A stretch of 38,822 nucleotides of DNA from contig JACPGP010000024.1 in the NCBI GenBank assembly GCA_016182425.1, positions 1 through 38,822 of the forward strand, written 5' to 3'. Made by a program: the position numbers and the translations under genes. Under the pieces are notes generated by a model. It was not told where the DNA came from and ran no database searches. It saw only the letters and a list, made by a program, of their open reading frames with translations. Of this stretch, positions 17,032 through 32,702 are shown piece by piece (the stretch's first letter is position 1; each line of letters starts with the position of its first letter). The DNA is from Candidatus Levyibacteriota bacterium (GTDB lineage: Bacteria > Patescibacteriota > Microgenomatia > Levybacterales > UBA12049).

Positions 17032-17066
17032 TTGACAAATTGTATTACGTTGTAATACAATATAAT
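17032..17066 (+). promoter_or_regulatory. Promoter with palindromic operator for the BrnT/BrnA pair
   Basis: TTGACA ... TACAAT/TATAAT, overlapped by perfect IR TTGTATTAC-GTT-GTAATACAA (17040-17060). Confidence 0.8.
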
Positions 17067-17768: not shown

Positions 17769-17814
17769 ATTTTGGTCATGTACCAAAATGTTCTTTAACA
17801 ACCTGCAATATATC
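17769..17814 (+). promoter_or_regulatory. Unit 1 leader: boxB-like hairpin, boxA-like TGTTCTTTAACAA, left stem arm
   Basis: ATTTTGGT/ACCAAAAT hairpin; motif is one mismatch from E. coli rrn boxA TGCTCTTTAACAA; arm AACCTGCAATATATC at 17800-17814. Confidence 0.7.
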
Positions 17815-18048
17815 AAAGAAAAATCCCAAATTCTAAATCCTAAATTCTAAAAAAATAGGAGGACTTTTGAGTGGAATTTAACTAGCCTATAAAAACATGC
17901 CAGTATTTATGGCCTGATTAAATTTCACTCGAAAGAGGAGCGGAATTTAAAAAATCTAAGAAGAGGTGACTATTGAAGGAAATTTTTGAAAGAAGGCTTT
18001 TGTCCAATGTTGCATCCAAATCATATTTAAGGAAAGGTATACAAAACC

Positions 18049-18399
18049 ATGAAACTTAATGTTTCCCAAGTTGGCGCTTTGACTGTTGCACCTATAATGT
18101 CCTGGATTCCATGCCCAGACAATGCAACTTGTCGCGGCCACAAAATCCACGATGGATCTGCCCGTGGATGGCATTGTAGTAACTCGGACTGTCGGTATGG
18201 CGTGGCGGAAAATAGCCTTGTTTCCATCATGATGCCAACATCAATTACGCATGTGCAGATAGTTTCCGTTGCCCCGGCTTTTGCACCAATGATGATGGCG
18301 GCTCGGAAGTGCCCTGATTGTGGTGCTTCAGTTTACAAAGATCCTCACGGCAAGGGAAAAGCCCTACGCTGTAAAAAGTGTGGCTGGAGGAGTAACTAA
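18049..18399 (+). CDS. Small double zinc-finger/ribbon protein
   Basis: CPDNATCRGH...CSNSDC and CPDC...CKKC; purine-rich SD-like AAGGAAAGG upstream. Confidence 0.7.
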   Translation: MKLNVSQVGALTVAPIMSWIPCPDNATCRGHKIHDGSARGWHCSNSDCRYGVAENSLVSIMMPTSITHVQIVSVAPAFAPMMMAARKCPDCGASVYKDPHGKGKALRCKKCGWRSN

Positions 18400-18400
18400 C

Positions 18401-18613
18401 ATGGCAAAGATAACAGCTGCTCAATTGAAAGTTATCAAAAAGGGTAAGCCCGATCAGTGCCCCGTAGAACCGTGTCCCGAGGACTGTCCTGGACTTAAGT
18501 TGTGTAAGCAGGCACATGCTCCAGAAGAAACCATTGACCTTGCGGCTGTAACTGAAGCTGCGAGAAAGAATTCGCTGGGGTCATTGCAGTTTGATGATTC
18601 GGTGCATGATTAG
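18401..18613 (+). CDS. 70-aa Cys-rich hypothetical protein
   Basis: GGAGGAG SD; ATG 1 nt after the previous stop; CPVEPCPEDCPGLKLC. Confidence 0.65.
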   Translation: MAKITAAQLKVIKKGKPDQCPVEPCPEDCPGLKLCKQAHAPEETIDLAAVTEAARKNSLGSLQFDDSVHD

Positions 18614-18798
18614 TTCCACACCCTGGAGAGATTTGGGCTAGCTTTATTTCGAAAGCTTGAATCCCGCCTTGGAGGTGGATCTGTTGTGAAGATGGGGGCT
18701 GGGGACTTTCCCTAGCCTCCTACCAACAGAGCCGCCTTCGCCGAGCTTCGGCGAGCCACAGCAAAACAAAACAAGATTCCGGTAGTCCGGACCAAAAC

Positions 18799-18813
18799 GA
18801 TATATTGCAGGTT
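18799..18813. repeat. Unit 1 right stem arm
   Basis: GATATATTGCAGGTT is the exact reverse complement of 17800-17814. Confidence 0.9.
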
Positions 18814-18903
18814 TTAAAAATAATTGATAATTAATAGTTAAGAGTGAATAGTTAAATATTCATTAGGTTGCAAAAGTTTTTTAATAATTTATATTATTAG
18901 AAA

Positions 18904-19155
18904 ATGACAGGAAGAAAAGTTCAAAAAGAAGCAGAAGCAGTACAACCAGGGTTTGATGTGATGTTGGTGCAAGAGAAACTACCTGAACCAGAAAATGAAT
19001 TGTTGAAGTTGATGGCTCGTGAGGGTGTGAAAGGCAAGAAGAGAGCGACCCAAACAACTGTGGCACAAAGAGTGGCTATGAATGCATTTAAACCAAGAAT
19101 TGTAATCCATACTGGGACACCAGTACTTGGAGGAGCGCAGGTGGATAAGGATTAA
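18904..19155 (+). CDS. Hypothetical protein
   Basis: 83-aa ORF, convergent with the AbiEii-like gene. Confidence 0.55.
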   Translation: MTGRKVQKEAEAVQPGFDVMLVQEKLPEPENELLKLMAREGVKGKKRATQTTVAQRVAMNAFKPRIVIHTGTPVLGGAQVDKD

Positions 19156-19787
19156 GATAAGTAGGTTTTTCCCAGCCGAAGTGATTCGGAAATAAGAAAC
19201 TTTTTGACTTCATCCCAAGAGATATCAGCCAGCATTTCGGGCATAGCGTCAGCATCTGCGTCTTCAAAATAGGTCATGCTCTTGATAAGGGTATATTTGT
19301 TTTCTTCCAGAACGTGGTACTTTTTGTTGTATAGCTCAAACATTTCCTCGATTGATATATTTTTTTGGTGACAAATTGTATATAGATCGATGAAATCTTT
19401 TTTGGTATTTCGATCGGATATAGCAACTAATTTCATAGCAATGATGTCGTCGATACTAGCAATTTTGATGCCCTGATAATCGTCAGTTGGATTCAATAGG
19501 GGATATTCGTATCGGAAATAACTAAATTTAACATTATTAAATTGGCCGATTAGTGTAGTTCCGGCAGCGGTATCAATATCAAACTTACCAGTAGTTTTTA
19601 GTGAATTGGCTAAAATAATAGGATCAAATTTTAAAGGTGAAAAAAAGTCAAAGTCGATTGAAATACGGTGACCTAAACGTAAGGCGAGTGAGGTACCACC
19701 AGCAAGATAGGCATTATTTAACAATTCACCTTGGCCTAAAATGTCCAGAGCTGTTTTCGCATTTGGCGATAAGACTGTTTCAAACAT
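19152..19787 (-). CDS. AbiEii/AbiGii-like nucleotidyltransferase toxin
   Basis: 'YLAGGTSLAL.LGHRISIDFDFF', 'MKLVAI.DR..KKDFIDLY' motifs. Start MFETV. Confidence 0.9.
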   Translation of the reverse strand: MFETVLSPNAKTALDILGQGELLNNAYLAGGTSLALRLGHRISIDFDFFSPLKFDPIILANSLKTTGKFDIDTAAGTTLIGQFNNVKFSYFRYEYPLLNPTDDYQGIKIASIDDIIAMKLVAISDRNTKKDFIDLYTICHQKNISIEEMFELYNKKYHVLEENKYTLIKSMTYFEDADADAMPEMLADISWDEVKKFLISESLRLGKTYLS

Positions 19788-20032
19788 GCTACCTCCGTAA
19801 GGGGAATATTTAAATAATTTGCCCAAAAAGTACCGGATTTGGCAGAGAAATCCCGTCGCGATTTTAGTGTTTCGACAACTTTATTTATTGAATAATTATG
19901 TAATACCCAGTTAGCAGCGACTAGGTCTCCTTTGTCTAAAAGTCGATTAATTACGTACTGATAATCGCCCTCGAAATCAATTTTATTGATATCGACATCC
20001 CAGAAATATTTGGATAAATTAGCTTTATTCAT
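19736..20032 (-). CDS. DUF6922-like putative antitoxin partner
   Basis: 'YFWDVD...YVINRLLDKGD...W' pattern, upstream of and overlapping the AbiEii-like gene. Confidence 0.75.
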   Translation of the reverse strand: MNKANLSKYFWDVDINKIDFEGDYQYVINRLLDKGDLVAANWVLHNYSINKVVETLKSRRDFSAKSGTFWANYLNIPLTEVACLKQSYRQMRKQLWTF

Positions 20033-20300
20033 TACTCCACATTATACCAATTTTGAGAAGTTATTTGCCTAGTAAAATGGTATAATAAATGATATGAGAT
20101 AAGCGGTGGTATGGTCAAAAAACAAGGATAAACTCGATAAAAATGATGATAAGGTCTATGTTTGGAAATTTGGAAGAAATAAAAGCACTTAAAAAAGAGT
20201 ATGGTGAAGAAGAGGTGAGAAGGGTTGCTATTTGTTGACAAATGCAATTTGGTGCAAGATTGTATCTTGACAGAATACAAAATGATAGTAAAATGATACT

Positions 20301-21452
20301 ATGGACATGCTGAAACGGGCAATAGAAGATAGTATAAATACGTATTTATCAGGCGAAGATACGAAGATATTGTTTGTATGGGGTCCGCGACGTTCAGGAA
20401 AGACGACATTGATTGATAAGTTGTCTAGAGCACTGAAGGTAACAAAATATAACTTTGACTTGGCTTCAGATAGGGACAAGTTTATTCCTCGTCGAGAAAT
20501 ATTGGAAAGAATTGTAGCTGATAATAGGGTTATCTTAATAGATGAAGTTCAAAGCTATCCTGAAGCCACAGTAATATTAAAAATACTTCATGATGAGTTT
20601 AAGATAAAAATCATTGCCACTGGTAGCTCGGAACTGAGACAAAAGTCAGGCAAAGAGTTTGACACTTTGGCTGGTAGATTTAGTGAGATTTACTGCTTGC
20701 CATTATCTGTAACCGAAATTGTAGCCAACGAAAAACCAAAGATGTCTGACGAGTTGGGTTTTTACAAACAAACAATGATAAATTCCCAAATATGGGGTGT
20801 TTATCCGGAAATATTTACCAAAGCTAATTTGGCGGAAAATGAAAGAATTGATCTCTTGCAAAAAGTTTTGGATACGTATGTTCTTAAAGATGTAGTAGAC
20901 ATATATGAATTGAAGAACCAAAAGCTAGCTAAAGATATTTTGACCAAGATTGCCTTACAGCTTGGACAGGAGGTTTCAATCCGAGAAATCGCTGATTCTT
21001 TGGGAGCATATCCGGCGACTGTATCAAACTATATTGAAATATTTATCAAAAATTATATTTTGATAGAGTTACCATCGTTTAAAACAAATATCAGAAAAGC
21101 TGTGTCGGAAAACCGTAAGCTATATTTTTATGATTTGGGGATTAGAAACATTTTGGTTAAAGATTTTCGGGAAATGGAACTACGACCTGACAAGGGTGGA
21201 GTGTTTGAAAACTTTATTATTTCCGAACTGGAAAAGTTGCGGAGACTAAAAAATGTTAAAGTGAATTTTTATTTTTATCGGGAATATGGAGGTAAAGAAA
21301 TTGATCTGATTATTGAGGATTATAAAAAAAATTATGTGACAGTGGAGATAAAAACGAATAAAGGTAATGCAAATAAGATCTTTCCAATAGAAAGCAAATT
21401 GGAAATGATAACGAGTCAAAATTATTTTGAGAAATTGAACAGTATCTTATAA
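20301..21452 (+). CDS. AAA_14 ATPase with DUF4143 (paralog 1)
   Basis: GPRRSGKT, IDEVQ, ATGSS, LAGR, KLYFYDLGIRN, FENF and EIDLI..EIK motifs. Confidence 0.9.
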   Translation: MDMLKRAIEDSINTYLSGEDTKILFVWGPRRSGKTTLIDKLSRALKVTKYNFDLASDRDKFIPRREILERIVADNRVILIDEVQSYPEATVILKILHDEFKIKIIATGSSELRQKSGKEFDTLAGRFSEIYCLPLSVTEIVANEKPKMSDELGFYKQTMINSQIWGVYPEIFTKANLAENERIDLLQKVLDTYVLKDVVDIYELKNQKLAKDILTKIALQLGQEVSIREIADSLGAYPATVSNYIEIFIKNYILIELPSFKTNIRKAVSENRKLYFYDLGIRNILVKDFREMELRPDKGGVFENFIISELEKLRRLKNVKVNFYFYREYGGKEIDLIIEDYKKNYVTVEIKTNKGNANKIFPIESKLEMITSQNYFEKLNSIL

Positions 21453-21465
21453 TTAAGTTCTATTG

Positions 21466-21494
21466 TTGACAAATGTGTATCTGCGGTGTATAAA
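21466..21494 (+). promoter_or_regulatory. sigma70-like promoter for unit 2
   Basis: TTGACA-17 nt-TATAAA; a second TATAAT at 21561. Confidence 0.55.
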
Positions 21495-21636
21495 AGCTCA
21501 TGTTGCAAAATGTGGCAAAGCGCTACAAAGTAGTACATCACAGAGTCCTAAAATTTATCCTATAATGGGAAAATTTTGAGGACTTTTTTGGTTTTTGAGG
21601 TTGGCGTATACCTTGAACATTGCGTTTGAGGAAAAA

Positions 21637-21674
21637 GCTTGCCGAGAAAGCACGTTAACAATCTGAATACGAAA
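21637..21674 (+). promoter_or_regulatory. Unit 2 leader: weak hairpin, boxA-like GCACGTTAACAA, left stem arm
   Basis: GCTT...AAGC hairpin; boxA-like motif 21650-21661; arm ATCTGAATACGAAA at 21661-21674. Confidence 0.6.
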
Positions 21675-21873
21675 ATAAGGGCTTCTAAAATAATGGTTTG
21701 AAAAGAGTTATTTTTGAGGGGCCGAAAGATATCTACCACTGTTTTTTGGTGATAAGTATCGACGGTTTCCCTCAAGAAAATACTAGTTTGGGAAATCGAC
21801 TGGCTGCATAGTCGGGTAACATACCCGTTTTTTACTTTTTCTGTCGTGCCGAATCAGATCAAATGGAGGTCCT

Positions 21874-22758
21874 ATGAGTAGGCGAATGTTGTGGTTGAAA
21901 GCGTTAGGGGTCCTTTACCTCCTAATGTCTGTGTTTGGCAGTGTATTTCCAGTAAAGGCGCAAGGCGAAGGGTTTTTGTGGCCGTATGTTGGGGTGTCTG
22001 GCAGGGATTGGTATCCGACCCAAGGTTGCCATAGTGATGGCTGGGGAGGTGCTGTTGGTGGCATTCCAAGTACCTGCGCAGTCGATTTTACTCGCTACTC
22101 AGGTGGTGAGAAAGTCAATTGTGGTGAACCAGCCATGGCTCCAGTTTCAGGAGACTTTACGAATTTTGGAGCTGACGCTGGAGGAAGTACTACGGCGGTG
22201 ATTAAAGGCCAAGCCTATTGGGTGTTTTTTGTGCACGGAGATTTTGTCCCTAGCGGATATTTGAAGCAGGGCGATATTTTCGGCTATGAAAATACTCATG
22301 GTAACAGCTCTGCTTGTCACTGGCACATGTCTGTGTTTGATGTAAATCAGAGTAGCTGGGTAAATCCAAATACTTTGCAGACAGTTGGCGTGCCAGCGGG
22401 GGCAGGACAAGTTGTCAACCTCGATGTTGCCAAAGTCCAGTTCCAGATGCAAACATGGACAGTGGTTGGCCCGGATTACCTGGATGGACTTATTCCGCCC
22501 ACGGTGACGTCCGTAACGGCTCCTGATCCAAATAAGGTCCAGATTGATGTCGAAAATCCAATTGATGGCTCTGAGTCGTCTTGGACATTTGACCAGTCTA
22601 AACTTCCCTATCAAGTTGATACGGGTAAAGTTGAACAATTAGTTGAGGAGAAGAAAGACAATTTCCTCACCTGGATTGTGGTCGCTATTGTTGCGTATAT
22701 GTTGTTCAAAAAAAGTCCGAGTCGTCACCGTGAAGATGATGATGAAGAAGAGGAGTAA
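21874..22758 (+). CDS. Secreted M23-like metallopeptidase with C-terminal TM and acidic tail
   Basis: Signal peptide (VKA-Q); H...AVDF, FVHG and 'GNSSACHWH' (HxH) motifs; GGAGG SD. Confidence 0.7.
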   Translation: MSRRMLWLKALGVLYLLMSVFGSVFPVKAQGEGFLWPYVGVSGRDWYPTQGCHSDGWGGAVGGIPSTCAVDFTRYSGGEKVNCGEPAMAPVSGDFTNFGADAGGSTTAVIKGQAYWVFFVHGDFVPSGYLKQGDIFGYENTHGNSSACHWHMSVFDVNQSSWVNPNTLQTVGVPAGAGQVVNLDVAKVQFQMQTWTVVGPDYLDGLIPPTVTSVTAPDPNKVQIDVENPIDGSESSWTFDQSKLPYQVDTGKVEQLVEEKKDNFLTWIVVAIVAYMLFKKSPSRHREDDDEEEE

Positions 22759-22763
22759 AAAAA

Positions 22764-24362
22764 ATGAACGCGTATTTTGATAATGTGTCAAAGTATTTCC
22801 TTCCTAAGGTCGTTAGCTCTTTCCCTGTCGGATGGGAAGACTGGATGGAAAATAATCCCCAAAGTGAACTGGCGATTGAGGTGATGTACCTTGGTGCAGC
22901 CCTGAGTCCAAGTGACCAACACAGATTTGAACGCGAGTTGAAAATGGCTATGGGTGGCAAAGCACAAGCTGTGCCTCCGCCCCCGCCTCAACAAGCACAA
23001 GCTGCACCCGCACAAGCTGTGCCTCCGCCCCCGCCTCAACAAGCACAAGCTGCACCCGCACAAGCTGTGCCTCCGCCCCCGCCTCAACAGGTAAAACCGG
23101 CGGAAGCTGAAAAAGGTCCTGGGTTCATGGCGGCAGTTCGAGAAAAGGCTGGGAACGCTTTGGGTGGTGTGAAAGATTTCGCGTCTCGCCCTATTTTTGG
23201 TGGGATCCCGTTGTGGATCGTCGTCGTTGGCGCTTTGCTGCTCTTTAACTCGGGAATCCTGAATGGGCTTGGTGATTTGCTTCCCAAAGGATCGAGTGGC
23301 GGTACTTCAACTGGTTTGACTGGCAGTCCGAGCGTGTGGATTAAGACGGCGGCTGGAGTGACGGTTCCGATCAATAAGATGCCATTTCCCAAGATTCCGT
23401 TTGCCGATATGGAAATGCGCAAGCTGATTGCGGCTCTATTGCTGTTGGTCAACCCGATTTTGGTTGCTTTCGACAATGCCGCAGCACGCCCAAACCAGGA
23501 ACCAAATCACAAAAGCAACATTGGTTTCGTGCTGTACTTTGTCGCAGCGATGTTGTGGGGTTATTGGGCGGTGATCATTGCTGGTTTTTCCTTGTTTTTG
23601 ACCTTAAGGAGTCGGGAGGGCAATACATCTTCGATTGGAAACCAGTTTTTCCTGCTGATTTTAGGTTTGTGGATTTGGTTCTCCAAGTTAGCCCCGATTG
23701 TAAATGGCTACCTGGACGGACTGCACAACCCGATGATTAGCTGGCTGCCCACATTGCTGCGCTACTTGTTTAATGGCGAGAACCTCAGACCTCTGGCGGC
23801 GATTGCCTTGGTTGGTTTCCTCATCTATTCAGTGCTGAGCGATATGTATGACAGCTCGACACTGATTACTTTGATGGGCTTCCAGCTGGCATGGTTCCTT
23901 GGAACTGGCGTGTTTCTCTTCTGGGAAAAAATGCCAATGCTTTACCAGATGCCGTTCTTCTATTTCCAGTTTGCGCTGGTAGTGATTGCGATTTTTATCG
24001 AACAGAAACAGGTTGGTTTGTTGAACTTGCCGAAGGGTATCCTGATTTTGTTTGGGGTGATGTACTTTGTCTCCCTTGGAATCCGCGATTATTTTGACAT
24101 TGATCCAAACGGGACTACTGTCTGGCGCTACATGACTCAGCCGGTTATCTTCCTGTACATGATCGTCCTCTGGCTGTCCTATGCCTTTGGCAAAGCTGTC
24201 TCAGGAGGGTCGAAAGTGTTCGCTGGGTTGTACCAGACGCTGGGAAGCTGGTTTGGTCAGTTGGTGCCGATTGCTGGACTTCAAGTACCGTCAGACGGAT
24301 TGATTACCCTCAACCTGGTTTTGGCTGGCGTACTGGTGTTTACTCAAGTTATTTTATATTGA
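22764..24362 (+). CDS. Polytopic membrane protein with Pro/Gln/Ala repeat
   Basis: About 10 or more hydrophobic segments; GAGGAG SD. Confidence 0.85.
   Translation: MNAYFDNVSKYFLPKVVSSFPVGWEDWMENNPQSELAIEVMYLGAALSPSDQHRFERELKMAMGGKAQAVPPPPPQQAQAAPAQAVPPPPPQQAQAAPAQAVPPPPPQQVKPAEAEKGPGFMAAVREKAGNALGGVKDFASRPIFGGIPLWIVVVGALLLFNSGILNGLGDLLPKGSSGGTSTGLTGSPSVWIKTAAGVTVPINKMPFPKIPFADMEMRKLIAALLLLVNPILVAFDNAAARPNQEPNHKSNIGFVLYFVAAMLWGYWAVIIAGFSLFLTLRSREGNTSSIGNQFFLLILGLWIWFSKLAPIVNGYLDGLHNPMISWLPTLLRYLFNGENLRPLAAIALVGFLIYSVLSDMYDSSTLITLMGFQLAWFLGTGVFLFWEKMPMLYQMPFFYFQFALVVIAIFIEQKQVGLLNLPKGILILFGVMYFVSLGIRDYFDIDPNGTTVWRYMTQPVIFLYMIVLWLSYAFGKAVSGGSKVFAGLYQTLGSWFGQLVPIAGLQVPSDGLITLNLVLAGVLVFTQVILY
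22962..23089 (+). repeat. 48-bp coding tandem repeat, ~2.7 copies (AQAVPPPPPQQAQAAP)
   Basis: Identical units start at 22962, 23010 and 23058. Confidence 0.95.
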
Positions 24363-24379
24363 CCTAAAGGAGGGTCGGT

Positions 24380-25063
24380 ATGTCGAAGAAAAAGTCTACC
24401 GACCCTACGGTTGGTATCGGAACGATTGCACTGGTGGTGATTGTGCTGGGTCTGTACTCGGGAAATCTGAAAGTTTCCGTGCCGCAGGCTTCTACTCAAT
24501 TGCCACCAACAAACTCCGTAGCCACAAGCAGTGTTCTTGAGGCTGCCAACGGAGCTGACGTCCCCAACCCACTTTCTGAACGGGTTGACGCAAAACAACT
24601 ACCCCCTTCACATCAAGGTGGTGAAGTTATATACAATGGCGGTGTACTTAGGGGTTTCCCTGACGCTGGTGTTGAAACTTCAGTAATTCCTGAAAGCGCC
24701 AAGAAAGTATCAGCAATTTTTAGCTGGTACTGGCCAAATCTGGGAGGAACAAACTGCAGTAGTTTCCGCAGTGATCTTCCTGATCGGGCCTTTAGTTTTC
24801 CTGATGCCGACCACTCAAGTGGTTGGTGTTGGTCGAGAATGAGCTCTGGGGAGAATTGGGAATACTACGTTGGTAGAGCAGTCGCTTGCCCCCAAGAATG
24901 GCCGTTTGGAACAAAGGTGTATGCCTTTGGACGTGAATGGCTGTGCTTGGATCATGGCGGAGCGATTGTGACTGAAAATGGTGAGTCTTGGATAGATTTT
25001 TTGACCCCAAGTCCACCGATGAGCTATCGAACCCATTTTGATGTTTGGGTGCTTTACCCTTAG
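24380..25063 (+). CDS. Membrane-anchored 3D-domain-like (MltA/RlpA-type barrel) protein
   Basis: 'AVACP..WPFGTKVY...CLDHGGAI...WIDF' resembles the 3D consensus 'VAVDP..IPLGT.V...DTGGAI...IDI'; AAGGAGG SD. Confidence 0.65.
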   Translation: MSKKKSTDPTVGIGTIALVVIVLGLYSGNLKVSVPQASTQLPPTNSVATSSVLEAANGADVPNPLSERVDAKQLPPSHQGGEVIYNGGVLRGFPDAGVETSVIPESAKKVSAIFSWYWPNLGGTNCSSFRSDLPDRAFSFPDADHSSGWCWSRMSSGENWEYYVGRAVACPQEWPFGTKVYAFGREWLCLDHGGAIVTENGESWIDFLTPSPPMSYRTHFDVWVLYP

Positions 25064-25076
25064 AAAGAGGATTACC

Positions 25077-27266
25077 ATGGCTACAATTCCATATCGAGAA
25101 ACAATAATTGAATATTTCAACAAGTTGAACGTGTCGTATCAAATTTCGTCAACGGCGAAGGTTGATGTCGATTTTCCAGCTGCGTTCGTGGGGGCAATAA
25201 TTGCGCAGAAGGGAACCGTGATCTGGTTGGAAAATGAACATGCTTGGGCGGTGCAATTTGGCAGTGAACCTGCGAAGTTGTTAACTCAGCCCAAAGCACA
25301 ATCGGCGCCGGTGCCTGCAAAAGCAAAAGCAGTTGCCGCGGCTGTCGTGAAACCAGTTCGAAAGGTTTCGAAAAAGTCGTCTTTTGGAATTCCCCAGTTT
25401 GGATTGTTGGCGGCGGTGCTGTTTTTTGCCCTCTCTGGCGGAAAGCTGAACCTTCCTGGAGCATCAACACCTGACGATCCTAATGCTTACCAATCCATGG
25501 CTACAGCCAGTGCCACCCCGGAACTCGTGGGTGATCCTGATGCATTTTGCAGTCAGGAACTGGGCAAGACCGTAACTGGTGTGAAGGTTTTTGAAGTTAC
25601 TGAGAGCGGTTTGACTGGCACAACGAAGGATTTATACCCTCAGGCTGAGATGGCGACATATTTTTATGCCAAAGAAGTTGAGCGAGGGATGCCATTTCTG
25701 ACCGTAAGTTGGTTGTTTCAGAGCGCCGATGCGAACGCAGAATTTGAAAAAGCGATTGCTCTGGATACTGCCAAGATGGACCCCAACGTTGACTGCGTAG
25801 ATCAGAGTTGCAGTAAGTTGTGGACGTCCTCGATTAACCTCGCCAATGATTACAGAATTGAGACGTTTTATAACGAGAACCGTGATCTGACTGACCCGCT
25901 CTATTACAAAAACGTTCCCGCGGAAATGTTTACTGCTTTCCGCGAATGGATCGTAGAAGTGGTCGCGGCCGGAAAGAATGGTACATCGTATCCTCGGTGT
26001 ATTGAAATTCCGGCGGTTAAGGATATGGCTGAGGTTTCCAAAGAAGCAAAAGACTGGCTATTAAACAATCAGCCTCAGCGCGGGAACGCACAACTGCCCT
26101 CATCAGGATCAAAAGGTCCTCGACCGACCGATCAGCCGCTGATCATTACCGCAACCCCGACCTTGGGGTATGTTGGGTCAAATGCTCCGGCATTTGATAA
26201 GTACGCGGCGGTAGTTGGTGCAACAGATGCCCAAACGGCATTTACAGCCGATCCTGACCAGCAGTGCTATGTCAACCTGACTGTGAACTGGCCCGACTTT
26301 ACCATGACCTCAAGTTTGAATGAGGTGATTCGCATTTTGGGCCCGAGCTCGTGGACTTTTCGTTCCATAGGGGACGGGACATTTCAGGCTCGGAGTTATG
26401 AGACTGATGCGAACGGCTATGCCGCTTGTGCCAAGGTGTTGAACCTTGAGACGGAATACTCGGCAGGCACATGGAGGATTGGCAACACTGGAGTGGTGGC
26501 GACTTTGCATTGGGAGAACTACGGTCTGCCCGACGAAATAAAAGTAGGTAGTGCGTTTATTTTCCCAGTCTACTCGGACCAAGTTGTCGCCGAGAGCGAG
26601 AGTTACGACATCATCCCGACAAGTACTCCGTCGGTCAGTTCAGCTTCGATCTACGATCTGTATGATGTTATGATCAGCAAAGGCTGGACAGAACTGGTAT
26701 CAACGGGATGCCCATTCGAACCTATCAATGGGTCGGTGACTACAAGCAGTGCGTTTACCGTTGATTTCGGTTACAACGATGTCCTCGCCGGGCAAAAGTA
26801 CTCGAAGGATGGGTGTGACCTTTTTGGGGGGTTGCATTTTACGACTTACGACCCGGGGCAAGGGGATTCGCAAGTATTATATGGCGGTAAGTTATATGTC
26901 TACCCTTATACCAAAGTCCAGTACCAACCCTCTCCCACTCCTGGTGGACCAACCTATCCACCGGACGGATCGCAGATTAGTCTCGCAGATCTATTAAAAT
27001 ACGAGACTGGGTATGGTGAAAAGGCAAACTCTGTGGGTTGTAAGAATGGGTCGATCCCTGGTTGGCCGAATCATGTTCCTGTCAAGACCAATGTTTATAA
27101 CTATTTGGTGGATTTCAGCGCAATTGCAGGACAAACCAATGGGTTGTGTGTTTATGACCCCGTAAAGATGACTACTTCCTCAGTCCTGTACTGGAGCATT
27201 TACGAGTACCAGGGTTACGGAAGTATAATCCAGTATGGTGGGTATTGGTTTGCTCCATTCAAATAA
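25077..27266 (+). CDS. Large single-pass membrane/extracytoplasmic hypothetical protein
   Basis: AAGAGG SD before ATG 25077; TM near residue 110; TATP linkers; paired Cys. Confidence 0.85.
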   Translation: MATIPYRETIIEYFNKLNVSYQISSTAKVDVDFPAAFVGAIIAQKGTVIWLENEHAWAVQFGSEPAKLLTQPKAQSAPVPAKAKAVAAAVVKPVRKVSKKSSFGIPQFGLLAAVLFFALSGGKLNLPGASTPDDPNAYQSMATASATPELVGDPDAFCSQELGKTVTGVKVFEVTESGLTGTTKDLYPQAEMATYFYAKEVERGMPFLTVSWLFQSADANAEFEKAIALDTAKMDPNVDCVDQSCSKLWTSSINLANDYRIETFYNENRDLTDPLYYKNVPAEMFTAFREWIVEVVAAGKNGTSYPRCIEIPAVKDMAEVSKEAKDWLLNNQPQRGNAQLPSSGSKGPRPTDQPLIITATPTLGYVGSNAPAFDKYAAVVGATDAQTAFTADPDQQCYVNLTVNWPDFTMTSSLNEVIRILGPSSWTFRSIGDGTFQARSYETDANGYAACAKVLNLETEYSAGTWRIGNTGVVATLHWENYGLPDEIKVGSAFIFPVYSDQVVAESESYDIIPTSTPSVSSASIYDLYDVMISKGWTELVSTGCPFEPINGSVTTSSAFTVDFGYNDVLAGQKYSKDGCDLFGGLHFTTYDPGQGDSQVLYGGKLYVYPYTKVQYQPSPTPGGPTYPPDGSQISLADLLKYETGYGEKANSVGCKNGSIPGWPNHVPVKTNVYNYLVDFSAIAGQTNGLCVYDPVKMTTSSVLYWSIYEYQGYGSIIQYGGYWFAPFK

Positions 27267-27337
27267 ATTTTAGGTTGGTCGCAGGGCTCATAGCTTCATC
27301 GTAGCCACCCTGCTACCAACAAGGAAGGAAGTAAGGC

Positions 27338-28618
27338 ATGAAAAGTTCAACTTTGAAAATGATCATGGTGTTAATCGTCGGTTGGTATTTAGTGACCAAT
27401 GGAGTAATTTCAAAAAACGATAACGCGATCGATCCAACTTCTACCCCAGCCGAGGCTGGTTCAAATGCGGCGGCGGTCCAAACTGCTGTTGAAAATGTGG
27501 CACAAATGACGCCTACCCCAGGATCTGCTGGTGCAGGCCAGATGGAAACAGCCGTCCCGACCCAAACCATCATCGTCGACCTTGGTGATGCCAATAAGAT
27601 GATAGAACTTATGCAAGGGAAAATGACCCGAGAAATGGTCAACTGGCTAATAACGGCACGATTGTCTACGGGTGGTGGAGCTCATGCTTGCTTCGTCGCT
27701 TGGTATGATGAGCCGTTTGATGATATCACTGTACCTGCTGGTCACCCTGGTATTCCTATGTGGCAGGTCATTGATGGTGGAAACGTCATCACAGCCGAAA
27801 AAATGGGTCTTGGCGGATGCAAGACGACGATAAAACTGGGCGACTTGCTTTCTGGTATCCCGCCGAGTTTTTTGCAAGACCCCGCCAACTATCAATTAAA
27901 CGAGGTTCCTTATACCTGGACAACTGGTACAACCACCATTACCGAAAGTCGGGTGGAAGTCACCGTGACAGTGCCCTATGCTTTTGGTGGACTGGTAGTT
28001 CAGCCTGGTAACGAGGTAACTCTCCAGACAGTATTGCCAAACGAAGCGGCTGCCTCAGTTCAGGACTTCTGGAAATATGTACTATCCCTTGGGGGAGATG
28101 TTTCCAAGGTCTGGGTTAAGTACGGGGCACTCGACAATTCCGCTGACAATCTGGCAATATTGGATGTCATTGCTCCGATTACGGACTGGCGCACAGGGGC
28201 TCGTTCGACCGATCACCTTGACGCACTGCGCGAACTGACCATGCAATCGGTATTGCCAGGGAGTCCTGCTTATGAAACAATCCGCAAGATCGTTTGCGAA
28301 AGTGCGGACGAGGCAGGGTTCAAAGATATTAGTGGTTTTGATCAAAGCGGCGCCCCAGTTACACTGGATAAGTGCACCGTTAAGGTGAACTTAGTTCCGA
28401 TCAACCCGAATGAACCCAATACCTGGTACCAACTGGATTCGTTGCCTCAGACCTGGTCCACGACTCCTGAGCAAATTGCCCAGCTCCGACCCGTAATTAT
28501 TCCGGCAGATTTTGAAGCTTATAACTTCGACAATGCGTACGTTTTATATGCGCCGGAAATAAACCAATCTAACTGGTGGAGTCAAGTACCTGAAGCTTTG
28601 CGTCAGTACGCTCCGTAA
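27338..28618 (+). CDS. Secreted/membrane-anchored hypothetical protein
   Basis: N-terminal hydrophobic helix, PT-rich linker; AAGGAAGG upstream. Confidence 0.85.
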   Translation: MKSSTLKMIMVLIVGWYLVTNGVISKNDNAIDPTSTPAEAGSNAAAVQTAVENVAQMTPTPGSAGAGQMETAVPTQTIIVDLGDANKMIELMQGKMTREMVNWLITARLSTGGGAHACFVAWYDEPFDDITVPAGHPGIPMWQVIDGGNVITAEKMGLGGCKTTIKLGDLLSGIPPSFLQDPANYQLNEVPYTWTTGTTTITESRVEVTVTVPYAFGGLVVQPGNEVTLQTVLPNEAAASVQDFWKYVLSLGGDVSKVWVKYGALDNSADNLAILDVIAPITDWRTGARSTDHLDALRELTMQSVLPGSPAYETIRKIVCESADEAGFKDISGFDQSGAPVTLDKCTVKVNLVPINPNEPNTWYQLDSLPQTWSTTPEQIAQLRPVIIPADFEAYNFDNAYVLYAPEINQSNWWSQVPEALRQYAP

Positions 28619-28622
28619 AAAA

Positions 28623-28636
28623 TTTCGTATTCAGAT
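28623..28636. repeat. Unit 2 right stem arm
   Basis: TTTCGTATTCAGAT is the exact reverse complement of 21661-21674 and starts 4 nt after the last stop codon. Confidence 0.9.
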
Positions 28637-28700
28637 ACACTCTCGCTGTATTCAGTCAACAATTTTTGTTTTGCTGGGTACAGCTTGGGGGCAATTCTTG

Positions 28701-28759
28701 CCTGTTGTGGTTCGTGTCTGGCTTCCCCTTTGGGAAGCCAGGCAAACGAACGCAACAGG
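28701..28759 (+). other. Long imperfect hairpin downstream of unit 2
   Basis: CCTGTTG..GTTCG.TGTCTGGCTTCCC / GGGAAGCCAGGCA..CGAAC.CAACAGG; no U-tract on +. Confidence 0.75.
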
Positions 28760-29057
28760 TGAGAAATAAAAAATTTATTGATCAAATATATTTTAATAAT
28801 GTTTTTGATGAGTAAATTCTGAAGATGAAGTAAGGTGGAATGTGGTATGCACAACACTTATCTTAGGATTGTAAATTTATTGATGGTGGTCTGAAGAATT
28901 GAAAGCTAATAGTAAACCAGTATTGTATGCAACTGATCTTGATGCAGTAAGGAGTATTGAGGTGGCACCGTTGGTGCCTAGAGTGGTAGGAAGAGTTGGA
29001 ATGCAGATAGGAGTAAAATGTCAGGACAAGCTGTGAGGGAATTTGGAGAAGTGAGAA

Positions 29058-29096
29058 ATCCTTCGACCCACCAGGGTAGACAGGCAAGCTCAGGAC
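29058..29096. repeat. Nested REP-like palindromic elements
   Basis: ATCCTTCGAC [CCACCAGGGTAGACAGGC] AAGCTCAGGAC. Confidence 0.6.
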
Positions 29097-29146
29097 GAGT
29101 GAGGCCGATGCCTAAGATTCGGGGGTTGATTGGGGAGTAGGAAAGG

Positions 29147-30307
29147 TTAAATTAGGTCAATCCAGTTTTTATTGACGATATTGGCGGAGATAGGGCAGGT
29201 TTTTGAATTGGAAATGAGATAACTTTGATTGATTTGTTTACCAAAGATTTTTTGAGCTTTGACTAAGGATGAAGCGTGAATGGGGCGAATTGTGGCAGTG
29301 GATTTTATTTCGACCAGATCAACTTGTCCGTTGTTTTCCAGAATGAGGTCGACTTCAAGTCCATCTCGGGTGCGGAGGAAATACATTGATGGTTTTTGGC
29401 CATGATGATAGTACTGTTTCCAGTAATCAATGATAATAAAAGTCTCAAAAAGTGAACCAAAATAAGGACTGTTGGTAAGTCCGGCGCTAGAGGTAATTCC
29501 CAAAAGGTGACTGACTAAACCAGTGTCGGTAAAATAAATCTTGGGACTTTTGATTACTCTTTTGCCAATATTTTGGAAATAGGGATAAAGTAAAAAGATC
29601 TGATAACTAGCTTCGAGAAGAGAAAGCCAACGTTTAGCAGTAGGCACGGAAACACCGATTTCTCGAGCAATTGAACTTAGGTCTAAGATTTGACCAGTAC
29701 GAACAGCAACTGATTTTAAGAAAATTTGAAATAAATTTAAATCACCTACTTGACTCAGGTTTCTAATGTCTCTTTCAAGAAAAGTTCTGATATATGAAGA
29801 TTGCCACAGATTGTGATCAATTTTATGATTGTTGGCAACTTCAGGATAATTACCCCGTAAAATAATGCCAGACAAATCGATAGATTTTTTATTGGTACCG
29901 ATGAGTTGTTCTGATAGTGAAAAGGGGAGTAAAGAGAGAATGGCAGCGCGTCCGGCAAGGGATTGGTTGACATGGTGCATTAGAGAAAAATTTTGAGAGC
30001 CGGTGAGAATCCAGCGTCCAGGCTGACGGTGGTCATCAATATCGGTTTTGATATAGGAAAGTAACTCGGGAACATACTGAATTTCGTCGATAATGGCTGG
30101 TTTCTTGATGTTGTTTAAAAAAGTGTGGGGGTCACTTTTTGCTAAAAGTTGGATGTCAGGGTTTTCGAGATTATGATAATCGTATTTTTTGCTAAAAGTA
30201 TTTTTAAGAAGGGTGGTTTTGCCTGATTGACGGGGACCAGTCAAAATTACAGCGGGAAATGTTTTGATTATTTTTTTGATGATATTGGTAATATCTCGGG
30301 GTTTCAT
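29147..30307 (-). CDS. AAA_14 ATPase with DUF4143 (paralog 2)
   Basis: GPRQSGKT, IDEIQ, LTGSQ, SLAGR, PKIYFTDTG and EVDLI..EIK motifs. Confidence 0.92.
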   Translation of the reverse strand: MKPRDITNIIKKIIKTFPAVILTGPRQSGKTTLLKNTFSKKYDYHNLENPDIQLLAKSDPHTFLNNIKKPAIIDEIQYVPELLSYIKTDIDDHRQPGRWILTGSQNFSLMHHVNQSLAGRAAILSLLPFSLSEQLIGTNKKSIDLSGIILRGNYPEVANNHKIDHNLWQSSYIRTFLERDIRNLSQVGDLNLFQIFLKSVAVRTGQILDLSSIAREIGVSVPTAKRWLSLLEASYQIFLLYPYFQNIGKRVIKSPKIYFTDTGLVSHLLGITSSAGLTNSPYFGSLFETFIIIDYWKQYYHHGQKPSMYFLRTRDGLEVDLILENNGQVDLVEIKSTATIRPIHASSLVKAQKIFGKQINQSYLISNSKTCPISANIVNKNWIDLI

Positions 30308-30486
30308 CAGAGTATTATATATCCTGCAAGTTTAATATTCAATGTTAAAATGGTGGGGTTGAATTGGGGATTGGTTGAGGGTAAGGATTGGAGCTTGACT
30401 ACAATAAACCGGAAATCAGGAGCAATAACTTTGGCTAATAAGTTAACAAAGGAGAATTGATGGTGTAGTAGGTTTATCCTATAATC

Positions 30487-30515
30487 TTGACAAAAGGGAT
30501 GGTTTTTGATAGGAT
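30487..30515 (+). promoter_or_regulatory. sigma70-like promoter for unit 3
   Basis: TTGACA-17 nt-TAGGAT. Confidence 0.7.
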
Positions 30516-30572
30516 TATTAAAATAATCAAAGTACGCATCTGCTGTGTATGTATTGATTGTTTTTGGCAACG

Positions 30573-30620
30573 CCCGATGTGAATTGTTCGGGAAGTACAT
30601 TAACAGTCAAAAAGAGTTGT
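30573..30620 (+). promoter_or_regulatory. Unit 3 leader: hairpin, boxA-like GTACATTAACA, left stem arm
   Basis: CCCGA...TCGGG hairpin; boxA-like motif 30595-30605; arm CAGTCAAAAAGAGTTGT at 30604-30620. Confidence 0.65.
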
Positions 30621-30727
30621 AGAGGTTGGGTCAAACCTGCCCTGTAATATGTACAGGGTAAATTTGACTCAACCTCAAAATTTTGAGGATTTTAAACCTG
30701 TCTGATGGACATAAAAAGGAGAATGCC

Positions 30728-31369
30728 ATGATTGAAATACCGGTTTTCGGAACAAATTGTAAAGTACTGAATCATATGTATACATATTTAGTGGTATCGG
30801 TGGTTTTGGCAATTGAGTTGTTCGTTGAAAGTGTGGGATTTAGTTTGAAGCTGGTTGAATTTGTGATCCTGCTGATTTCAGCAGTTGCGCTTATTTACAG
30901 TGAGAGGAGCCCGATTCATAAAGGCGTTAAGGTCATGTGGATTGCGATTGTTTGGTTGAGCTTGTATTTCGGTTATTACATGAGTGGGATTGTAGTAATG
31001 ACTTTTTATGTCTCATTGGGAATTGGTGAAATCATCAACGTGTCACGAGATTACAAGAAGTACTCGAAGATGGCCATTAAAGACTGGGTAATGCTGGTAA
31101 TTGCAGTATCTGCTGTGTTGGTAAAGACCTTGCTTGATAGTTGGTCTATGTACCAAGGTGGAGAATTTATTGCTGCAATACTTATTATTGCGATGGCCTG
31201 GGTCACCATAGTTGGGAAGGATGTTTTTAATCGAAACATTCAAATAACACTGCTGATTCTGTCATTGCCGTTTGTGGGTTCACCGCTTTTTCTATTTGCG
31301 GTCATTGTCACTGTTGCGGTCATCAATGCATCGATACGTTTTGCTCACCATGTTGGTGATATCCAATAA
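30728..31369 (+). CDS. Polytopic membrane hypothetical protein
   Basis: AAAGGAG SD before ATG 30728; about 7-8 hydrophobic segments. Confidence 0.8.
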   Translation: MIEIPVFGTNCKVLNHMYTYLVVSVVLAIELFVESVGFSLKLVEFVILLISAVALIYSERSPIHKGVKVMWIAIVWLSLYFGYYMSGIVVMTFYVSLGIGEIINVSRDYKKYSKMAIKDWVMLVIAVSAVLVKTLLDSWSMYQGGEFIAAILIIAMAWVTIVGKDVFNRNIQITLLILSLPFVGSPLFLFAVIVTVAVINASIRFAHHVGDIQ

Positions 31370-31430
31370 CTTTTCATGGAAAGGTACGGGTGAGGACTTT
31401 GTCCTCACCCGCCCATGAAACCACAACACA

Positions 31431-31447
31431 ACAACTCTTTTTGACTG
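31431..31447. repeat. Unit 3 right stem arm
   Basis: ACAACTCTTTTTGACTG is the exact reverse complement of 30604-30620. Confidence 0.92.
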
Positions 31448-31568
31448 AAATTTATAAATAGTTGGGTTAATAATTTGGGAAGTACTTTTTGATTTAGCAT
31501 TTGGTTGGAGATCAAGTTAGTATAAATTGGGCTTGACATGTTGCCTAGTTTAGTATATATTAGGGAAT

Positions 31569-32702
31569 ATGTATATTCAAAGAGAGGTTGAGTCGGCAAT
31601 TAAAAAAAGTCTGTTTAAAGGTAAAATAGTGATTGTTTATGGCGCCAGGCAGGTTGGTAAAACAACTTTGGTAAAAAAAATGGCGGAGAGTTTTGGTAGA
31701 CCTTATGGTTATTTAAATTGTGACGAGCTGGATATTTTAAGTCAATTTCAGAGAGCGGGGAACTCGGTAGCGTTAAGGCAAATGTTGGGACAGAATCAGT
31801 TGATAGTTATTGATGAAGCACAGAGAGTCAAAAATATTGGTCTGAAGTTGAAACTATTGATAGATAATTATCCCGAGATTCAACTGTTGGTGACCGGTTC
31901 TTCTTCTTTTGATTTGGCAAATGAGGTGAGTGAACCGCTGACTGGCAGAAGTGAAGAATTTTGGTTGTTCCCTTTTTCAGTTAGGGAGCTGTGGAAGGAA
32001 AGTGACAGGATAACGCGGGAAAGGCAGCTCGAAAAATGGCTGATTTACGGAAGTTATCCAGGGGTATGGAACCTGACTTCCGAAGAGGAAAGAGCGGTGA
32101 AAGTAAAGCAGTTGGCGGCAAACTATTTGTATAAAGATGTCATAAAGTTTAATGAAATAAAAAACTCTGAACTGGTACTGAAACTGTTGCAAGCCTTAGC
32201 ACTCCAAATAGGTAATGAAGTATCCTATAACGAGTTGGCGAAGACAATTGAGGTTAGTAAACAAACTGTGGCATCGTACGTTGAGTTATTGGAGAAGGCG
32301 TTTGTGATATTTGCTATTAGACCATTTTCGGGGAATATGAGACAAGCTTTGAATAAGAAGAGGAAAATATATTTTTTGGATGTTGGGATTCGGAACGCAA
32401 TTATAAACAACCTAAACCCAATGTCGATTCGTGATGATGGAGGGAGGCTGTGGGAGAACTTTGTCGTAGCTGAAAAGTATAAACAACAATTGGGACTGGG
32501 GTACAAGACCAATCTTTATTTTTGGAGAACGTATCAGGGTCAAGAAGTTGATTTGGTGGAAGACATTGGGGGAAAGTTGATTGGCTGGGAGATAAAACTT
32601 AAGGGAAAGAGAAACAAACAACCTAAGGACTGGGGGACTTATGAAAATTCAAGCTGGAAGGTGGTTGATAAAGAAAATTTTTGGGAATCGGTAAATTTCT
32701 AA
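31569..32702 (+). CDS. AAA_14 ATPase with DUF4143 (paralog 3)
   Basis: GARQVGKT, IDEAQ, TGSSS, EPLTGR, KIYFLDVGIRN, LWENF and EVDLV..EIK motifs; TTGACA-17-TATATT-7-ATG. Confidence 0.92.
   Translation: MYIQREVESAIKKSLFKGKIVIVYGARQVGKTTLVKKMAESFGRPYGYLNCDELDILSQFQRAGNSVALRQMLGQNQLIVIDEAQRVKNIGLKLKLLIDNYPEIQLLVTGSSSFDLANEVSEPLTGRSEEFWLFPFSVRELWKESDRITRERQLEKWLIYGSYPGVWNLTSEEERAVKVKQLAANYLYKDVIKFNEIKNSELVLKLLQALALQIGNEVSYNELAKTIEVSKQTVASYVELLEKAFVIFAIRPFSGNMRQALNKKRKIYFLDVGIRNAIINNLNPMSIRDDGGRLWENFVVAEKYKQQLGLGYKTNLYFWRTYQGQEVDLVEDIGGKLIGWEIKLKGKRNKQPKDWGTYENSSWKVVDKENFWESVNF

Follow-up and report, generated by a model that had tools for sequence, protein, structure and literature searches.

The window analysed here is a 38 822-nt stretch of DNA from a very small groundwater bacterium (Candidatus Levyibacteriota), namely contig C35 of our genome G000 (GenBank assembly GCA_016182425.1; 797 kb in 38 contigs, ∼40% GC, 88% complete). 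It contains three protein-coding units, numbered 1–3 below, each of which opens with a motif resembling boxA of the rRNA (rrn) operons and is bounded by two short arms, one in the leader and one in the trailer, that are exact reverse complements of each other. On balance, we think that these units are probably boxA-led mRNAs whose leaders and trailers form helices at RNA level, being framed in the same way as the pre-rRNAs of the same organism.

The exact inverted pairs, all read on the forward strand and found by exact complement search, are located at 17800–17814/18799–18813 (unit 1, 15 bp), 21661–21674/28623–28636 (unit 2, 14 bp) and 30604–30620/31431–31447 (unit 3, 17 bp); an earlier note on this DNA had given the same positions and lengths. 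With mismatches allowed, the pair of unit 1 extends to 21 nt at 90% identity and that of unit 3 to 28 nt at 82%. The motif strings reported for the three leaders, GTTCTTTAACA, GCACGTTAACA and GTACATTAACA (units 1, 2 and 3, respectively), are present as well, and in all three units the 5′ arm starts in the last 1–3 bases of a motif ending in TTAACA. The distance from motif to first open reading frame (ORF) is about 75 to 250 nt; the trailer arms are intergenic, being situated 186, 5 and 62 nt past the last stop codon in units 1, 2 and 3. The arms flank the whole unit and the 5′ arm stands directly at the boxA-like motif, as is expected of a leader–trailer layout. We also found, in agreement with the earlier note, that the arms of the three units are unrelated to each other; each is unique in the assembly at up to two mismatches, save for scattered chance matches with two mismatches. 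Of the sequencing runs listed for this stretch, four, all DNA and from one study, contain it and none is of RNA; contigs of these runs cover the stretch in the window orientation, and the few joints, with sides of 20–31 nt, look like other organisms.

The boxA/Nus complex and helices between leader and trailer are textbook features of rRNA synthesis. In the genome's own 16S leader, at the end of contig C18, a promoter and a hairpin are followed by GCTCTTTGACAA and then by a CA-rich stretch. In the 23S spacer a tRNA precedes GCTCTTTGACAA and the stalk's 5′ strand follows immediately, with the complement past the 3′-end of 23S; this helix takes in the 3′ half of boxA, its start being in the last bases of the motif. 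Genome-wide, 28 sites differ from GCTCTTTRACAA by no more than one mismatch, and among them a long downstream complement is present only in the 23S spacer and in unit 1, where the offset of the helix within boxA is identical. The likeness to rrn operons proposed in the earlier note was thus borne out by rRNA leaders that share the grammar of the window units. The motif of unit 1, GTTCTTTAACAA (17790–17801), differs at one position from GCTCTTTRACAA, the own rrn boxA being GCTCTTTGACAA; it also fits GYTCTTTAANA, the string used in a published search for boxA ahead of protein-coding genes (Baniulyte et al. 2017, PMC5725501, as given in the part of that article available to us). In the relatives, GGCTCTTT[GA]ACAAGTGAAGAGAA was found in 7 of the 20 full-length 23S spacers examined, with one more spacer carrying a variant, so that boxA is native to the family in two forms, one with G and one with A. 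The nusB gene and rnc, the gene for RNase III, had been named in the earlier note as genes to look for; both are encoded, adjacent and on the same strand (contig C34:23891–24584, minus strand), and their adjacency fits a functional link, in this organism, between the recognition of boxA and the cutting of the stalk.

As to the rRNA genes themselves, the 23S gene (contig C19:11419–16668, minus strand) is 5.25 kb long and holds two group I introns, with a tRNA upstream and 5S downstream. The 16S gene is separate from it; it is located on contig C18 and truncated where that contig ends.

The conjunction of motif and abutting arm is not a product of chance. Judged by length alone, arms of this kind would attract little attention: exact pairs of 14, 15, 16 and 17 nt, 60–3000 nt apart, were observed 20, 6, 2 and 4 times in the genome versus 15.7, 4.6, 1.2 and 0.6 times in 10 second-order Markov simulations of it. 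A 14-bp pair is therefore ordinary; the window has four exact 14-nt pairs at any distance. The combination with the motif is another matter. Among 164 oriented contexts (82 exact pairs of at least 14 nt within 8 kb, genome-wide), TT[AG]ACA abuts the 5′ arm in five versus about 0.9 expected, with 0–3 cases in each of 20 shifted controls, and so the arrangement pointed out in the earlier note occurs above background frequency. The five cases are the 23S rRNA stalk, units 1–3 and one match in a coding region of contig C29, which looks like a chance event. For a wider pattern, G[CT][TA]C[TAG]TT[AG]ACA, which was written after the units had been seen but without use of the arms in its definition, there are 20 sites in the genome; four of the 20 have an exact downstream complement of 14–17 nt, always beginning 3–5 nt before the motif end, while control arms upstream of the same 20 sites do not exceed 12 nt (0/20 at 13 nt or more).

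One could still argue that three unrelated chance inverted repeats happened to lie beside a common AT-rich hexamer. Exact 14–15-mers within a few kb do occur at near the null rate genome-wide, the motif was spotted post hoc, and the additional match in contig C29 is, chance-like, within a gene. Yet three of the four window pairs of at least 14 nt within 10 kb have the motif at the arm, against a background of 0.0054 per 12-nt context; all the trailer arms fall into intergenic sequence close behind the last stop codon; the rRNA stalk, which was invisible to the reader who made the earlier note, has the same layout; and a related family has arms that co-vary. We regard coincidence as highly improbable.

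This family was reached through one of two further units in the same genome. The unit at C19:1393–2354 has a hairpin, a perfect boxA and 9-bp arms (arm GCATAGAGA), the trailer arm being 9 nt past the stop codon of a 282-aa secreted-looking ORF with 55–63% GC. The unit at C38:8663–9253 has GTTCTTTGACA and 10-bp arms; its trailer arm is 1 nt past the stop, and its cargo, two small zinc-ribbon-like ORFs, is situated just upstream of an FtsH-like gene. We also considered whether the GC-rich cargo of the C19 unit could be a non-coding RNA; this was ruled out by the 282-codon ORF, its signal-peptide-like start and its relatives at protein level. Relatives of the protein are present in six other genomes of the order, and in three of these the frame was seen together with a hammerhead-like core after the trailer arm.

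Leaders of the C19 type were then compared among 10 genomes. In eight of them a boxA (GCTCTTT or GTTCTTT) or a GCACATT variant, plus [AG]ACA, is followed by an arm of 10–16 nt, the exact complement of which sits just before a ribozyme; in the two genomes failing this description, the contig ends after only 0.95 and 2.4 kb on the upstream side. Arm sequences vary from locus to locus and are matched by the trailers of their own loci: on average, the longest complement measures 12.4 between leader and trailer of the same locus (diagonal) versus 7.2 between those of different loci (off-diagonal), and the trailer of the same locus ranks first, ties included, in 8/9 cases and without a tie in 6/9. 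As judged from these comparisons, leader and trailer arms of the C19 family co-vary in eight other genomes. Since units 1–3 consist of ORFans, the evidence for co-variation comes from this related family and not from the arms of units 1–3.

The ribozyme adds to this picture. In 10 genomes of the order, related units have a type III hammerhead immediately 3′ of the trailer arm; in the alignment of the ten, RNAalifold recovers three stems around the invariant CUGANGAG and CGAAA, with compensatory changes in 7 of 16 pairs. It is this alignment on which the ribozyme call rests, and not an Rfam score: in seven relative loci (23.5 kb) no ribozyme was matched by Rfam, with E values of up to 0.1 admitted, and on one 151-nt stretch RF00008 scored only 18.8 bits. 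When the 245 genomes of the order were searched with the hammerhead core, 30 of them yielded 32 matches in all; on its own, this core pattern is unspecific, a reversed control looking much the same on inspection, without a tally. Of the 30 loci fetched for these matches, 11 have in common a stem I hairpin and a conserved run rich in pyrimidines, both situated upstream of the core. The presence of an RNA-processing element at the trailer arm argues for a role at RNA level. Perreault et al. (2011, PMC3088659) have described hammerheads that flank single genes or short gene blocks, both in prophages and in operons of bacteria, and the related units in 10 genomes, which end in a hammerhead, resemble these; the difference is that pairing with a leader and boxA are not described in the portion of that work available to us, and that the window units and the rest of their genome are without a hammerhead. 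A literature search on hammerhead ribozymes together with the candidate phyla radiation found nothing relevant.

Several details of these hammerhead loci, which belong to boxA-led GC-rich units (L091, L092, L093, L125 and L129–L135), may be recorded here. Stem III has CCCUU as its 5′ strand, a repetition of ACCUU at the end of the trailer arm, so that arm and ribozyme fold could compete. In two loci the start codon of the next gene comes right after the 3′ strand of the ribozyme, and this strand may double as its ribosome-binding site.

A number of observations weigh against our reading. The motifs of units 2 and 3 depart from the rrn type: GCACGTTAACAA (21650–21661) has 2 and GTACATTAACAG (30595–30606, found by sequence reading and pattern scan) has 4 mismatches of 12 to GCTCTTTRACAA, all in the 5′ half of boxA with the 3′ half retained, so that the comparison with the genome's own boxA asked for in the earlier note turns out well for unit 1 and fails for the other two. 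In the accessible part of PMC5725501, single changes are said to abolish function of the Escherichia coli boxA. Neither Rho (in the 88%-complete assembly) nor, above the Pfam cut-off, SuhB was found in the genome. The test with the wider pattern described above is partly circular, because the pattern was defined post hoc, and when boxA-like sites were ranked by duplex energy the observed values were about those of the control, with the 23S stalk alone standing out. The hammerhead is absent from the window and from its genome, where the best score was 12.8 bits. A nearly whole genome of a relative (G029, 790 kb) has no such unit, and the frame is therefore patchy. Homologs of the 116-aa, 213-aa and 742-aa proteins of the window units were not found in the 245 genomes of the order; a search of 5.8 billion proteins returned self matches and one partial match on a 615-nt contig. 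Then there is the shape of the helices. Typical RNase III stalks have roughly 20 bp or more; the arms of the window, in a genome that does carry rnc, form 14–17 exact bp and are shorter. They are perfect duplexes with no wobble pairs and with abrupt ends, and at the positions flanking the arms of 14 units there were 7 G-U versus 28 A-C combinations of 168, that is, no enrichment of G-U.

Perfect, sharp-ended arms with such a wobble count at their flanks fit repeats at DNA level as well as they fit RNA helices. The arms could accordingly mark, as terminal inverted repeats, the ends of passenger cassettes or invertible segments; an enzyme from another locus would move the former, or an invertase would flip the latter, and TTAACA would belong to the target or recognition site. 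Mobile insertion cassettes, passengers similar to miniature inverted-repeat transposable elements and integron cassettes are all short ORFan or accessory units bounded by inverted repeats; so are the window units. The setting also suits a DNA-level explanation. Units 1–3 are within an accessory island of defence and mobile genes, roughly 13.9–32.7 kb of the window, for which family scans of the window ORFs revealed a VirD4/TraD-like ATPase, BrnT/BrnA-like and AbiE-like toxin–antitoxin pairs, three AAA_14/DUF4143 ATPases matching the PADLOC defence candidate PDC-S01 and several ORFs that match no family. The cargo consists of ORFans and, in units 1 and 2, has a GC content 10–15 points above the flanks; it looks foreign. 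Other cassette arrays bounded by inverted repeats exist in the same genome, on contigs C5 and C11.

Nevertheless, we rate a DNA-level origin of the arms as unlikely. No transposase, invertase or integrase family was matched among the 43 window ORFs scanned, nor was Phage_integrase in the assembly. The arms are single-copy in the genome and differ from unit to unit, so that there are no shared ends; the shared motif is on the 5′ side only; and direct reading revealed no consistent target-site duplication. The 23S rRNA stalk, moreover, follows the same grammar, and in the related units the trailer arm adjoins a ribozyme. Two particular kinds of cassette were tried and rejected. The unique arms, the lack of a transposase family in the window and the lack of a consistent duplication do not agree with a passenger cassette derived from an insertion sequence. 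For integron cassettes, there is the missing Phage_integrase family, and the motifs do not fit GTTRRRY, which we take to be the integron consensus (no attC model was run).

The diverged motifs raise another alternative, in which the helices are real RNA elements and the motif is a separate leader element that has nothing to do with Nus factors and serves a different binding protein or a different structural purpose, units 2 and 3 having partly converged on TTRACA. Units 2 and 3 retain only the 3′ half of boxA, and TTRACA resembles a −35 hexamer; TTAACA of unit 1 was indeed scanned as a weak −35 (9/12). The GCAC[AG]TT variant of these two units recurs at the homologous leader position in relatives G055 and G039 (the motif of unit 2 is 11/12 identical to that of the conserved-unit leader in G055), which suggests a selected alternative rather than decay; the same recurrence argues for a tolerated or selected form of one and the same element. 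On the other hand, the boxA of unit 1, of the C19 unit and of the related leaders in G031, G033 and G227 agrees at every base with one of the two forms that the rRNA boxA takes in the family, and the GTTCTTT form is present in unit 1, in the C38 unit and in the leaders of G133, G084 and G076. The position of the motif relative to the helix is that seen in the 23S spacer, and direct reading showed no usable −10 after the motif in units 2 and 3. A motif unconnected with Nus seems to us a rather remote explanation.

If the units are boxA-led mRNAs closed by RNA helices, a mechanism may be outlined by analogy with rRNA. NusB–S10 would bind boxA on the nascent RNA and hold the leader arm close to the polymerase's RNA exit channel; this arm would pair with the trailer as the latter emerges, the ends of the message closing into a 14–17-bp helix; and the closed helix may then protect the message ends or be cut by RNase III. 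A model of this kind has been put forward for 16S pre-rRNA (PMC10250234, from the part of the article at hand): with NusB–S10 bound to it, boxA would retain the helix's 5′ strand at the polymerase for as long as the trailer has not emerged. Binding of Nus factors would be likely in unit 1 and doubtful in units 2 and 3. Since no Rho was found in the genome, anti-Rho antitermination may not be the point of the frame; co-transcriptional closing with protection or processing of the ends seems a more likely purpose.

Parts of such an arrangement have precedents. The untranslated regions (UTRs) at the 5′ and 3′ ends of the icaR mRNA of Staphylococcus aureus pair with each other. For the Bacillus subtilis hbs mRNA, 5′/3′-UTR pairing has been published (PMC5737220), as has boxA upstream of protein-coding genes, i.e. 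of suhB, rpsJ and the gene of a ParE-like toxin (PMC5725501); both sources were available in part. The statement in the earlier note that nothing of the kind had been described for mRNAs was therefore too strong. As in hbs and icaR, leader and trailer of one mRNA pair in the window units; those two are single genes with no boxA and no frame repeated around unrelated genes. The boxA-regulated genes are similar in having boxA in the 5′ leader of an mRNA, and one of the targets is a toxin–antitoxin locus in accessory DNA. They differ in that their sites are within 50 nt of the start codon and block translation, whereas the motifs of the window are ∼75 to 250 nt upstream; and a long-range closing helix is not described in the available text of PMC5725501, while the window motif is tied to a complement in the trailer. 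The closest relative in layout is the leader or spacer of the rrn operons (E. coli; PMC10250234, as above), which comprises a boxB hairpin, boxA, boxC and a helix of leader and trailer that RNase III cuts. The window units share its order of promoter, hairpin (not in every case), boxA, 5′ arm, long cargo and 3′ arm, where the arm comes directly after boxA, and at the same offset in the organism's own 23S stalk. The differences are that the window cargo is protein-coding, that the motifs of units 2 and 3 have diverged, and that the 16S helix has 25–40 bp (PMC10250234) versus 14–17 exact bp in the window. We found no paper joining boxA to an mRNA-closing helix or to a hammerhead, and no leader–trailer frame of mRNAs among the titles and abstracts listed, in searches that do not reach ∼1.7 million PMC articles and most subscription journals.

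Going one step further, we tentatively propose, as a possibility short of probable, that a portable mRNA frame modelled on pre-rRNA, made up of boxA, a leader–trailer helix and, in some lineages, a hammerhead at the end, is in use among Patescibacteria and in their mobile DNA, and that accessory or foreign genes without kinship to each other are inserted into it. The polymerase would be modified by Nus factors, the message would be closed end to end, and RNase III or the ribozyme would release or stabilise it; units 1–3, all in one defence island, would be independent instances of the frame. If this were true, the machinery for transcription and folding of rRNA would serve a second, wider clientele, and it would become understandable how poorly adapted, GC-rich foreign ORFans are expressed and protected in AT-rich, apparently Rho-less organisms. 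It would also give the long-unexplained bacterial hammerhead ribozymes a concrete role, at the trailer arm of the related units, and accessory cassettes of uncultured bacteria could in practice be traced by this frame.

We turn to the remaining features of the three units, all on the forward strand. In unit 1, a hairpin (17770–17788; TTTTGGT-catgt-ACCAAAA) ends one base 5′ of the motif. The earlier note had placed a hairpin and a promoter ahead of the motif in every unit. The unit 1 hairpin is modest (−6.8 kcal/mol, z −1.8, with 11 of 200 shuffles folding equally well), and those of units 2 and 3 are no better than shuffles (56/200 and 47/200 as good), so this part of the proposal holds, weakly, for unit 1. 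The reverse is the case for promoters: units 2 and 3 have promoter-like sites, whereas the promoter scan gave no consensus promoter directly upstream of unit 1, which may be transcribed from the toxin–antitoxin promoter at 17032–17061. A stable stem-loop is located 3′ of the unit 1 leader arm (17868–17931; −23.7 kcal/mol, z −4.5, none of 200 shuffles as good). There follow an ORF of 116 aa (18049–18399, ∼50% GC), Cys-rich and zinc-ribbon-like, and a second ORF of 70 aa (18401–18613), both with no family match.

Unit 2 has a promoter-like TTGACA-17-TATAAA at 21464–21493, seen by eye; the scan tool gives 21537–21566 instead. Its operon of five ORFs (294, 532, 227, 742 and 426 aa; 21874–28618) has 45–58% GC, and the ORFs have no Pfam, PHROG, PADLOC or NCBIfam match; no homolog of the 742-aa protein was found in viral contigs either. 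The 532-aa ORF includes three tandem 48-nt repeats, two of them identical, at 22962–23105, which encode a Pro/Ala/Gln-rich stretch. In unit 3, the promoter scan gave TTGACA-17-TAGGAT at 30487–30515, and a very stable stem-loop (30622–30676; −36.6 kcal/mol, z −9.3) stands directly 3′ of the leader arm. The unit codes for a hydrophobic, membrane-like protein of 213 aa (30728–31369) with no homolog found; an 8-codon ORF ending in ATGA overlaps the main start. No known RNA family was identified by Rfam in the leaders or trailers of the window.

All three leaders have a 17-nt motif, AAAAWTWKGAGGAYTTT, in common (17851–17867, 21570–21586 and 30677–30693). It is situated 3′ of the arm in units 1 and 3 and 5′ of the boxA-like motif in unit 2, and may be the ribosome-binding region of tiny leader ORFs.

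The PDC-S01 ATPase genes of the island have strong promoter-like sites of their own at 20267–20301, 30307–30342 (minus strand) and 31533–31569. In these three promoters the −10 hexamer ends ∼7 nt upstream of the start codon, and the mRNAs may therefore be leaderless. The leaders of units 1–3, by contrast, are ∼75 to 390 nt long, as counted from motif or promoter-like site to the first ORF.

The arrays mentioned above on two other contigs are as follows. Contig C5:1–4650 (locus L087) carries four cassettes in an array, of which two are antitoxin/PIN-like pairs and the other two GC-rich ORFans, with five copies of a structured repeat of 85–95 nt (an outer 13-bp stem and an inner hairpin) between the cassettes. 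Each cassette is thus flanked by inverted arms, with ATAACA before them. Bordering the array, which looks like an insertion, is a duplicated 70-nt piece (86% identity) from the 5′-end of a UvrD/PcrA-like gene. On contig C11:12476–14379 (locus L088) a perfect 39-bp inverted repeat surrounds a 1.8-kb segment of up to 63% GC, which holds an ORF paralogous to one in a C5 cassette (start LIKTYIRERPSNMSKE); in the outward direction, the repeat has GCAATTTGACAA at its outer ends. As for a common system with the window units, the likeness of the C5 array and the C11 repeat to them is limited to (A/T)TAACA before the arm.

When 60 relatives were searched at DNA level with units 1 and 3, nothing but a leader motif of low complexity came up. 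This stretch, AAATCCCAAATTCTAAATCCTAAATTCTAAA (17812–17856 in the leader of unit 1), recurs in 11 of the 60 relatives in intergenic positions and often in multiple copies; in one relative, a stretch of this type is located just upstream of a gene for a four-helix bundle protein (23S rRNA IVP family).

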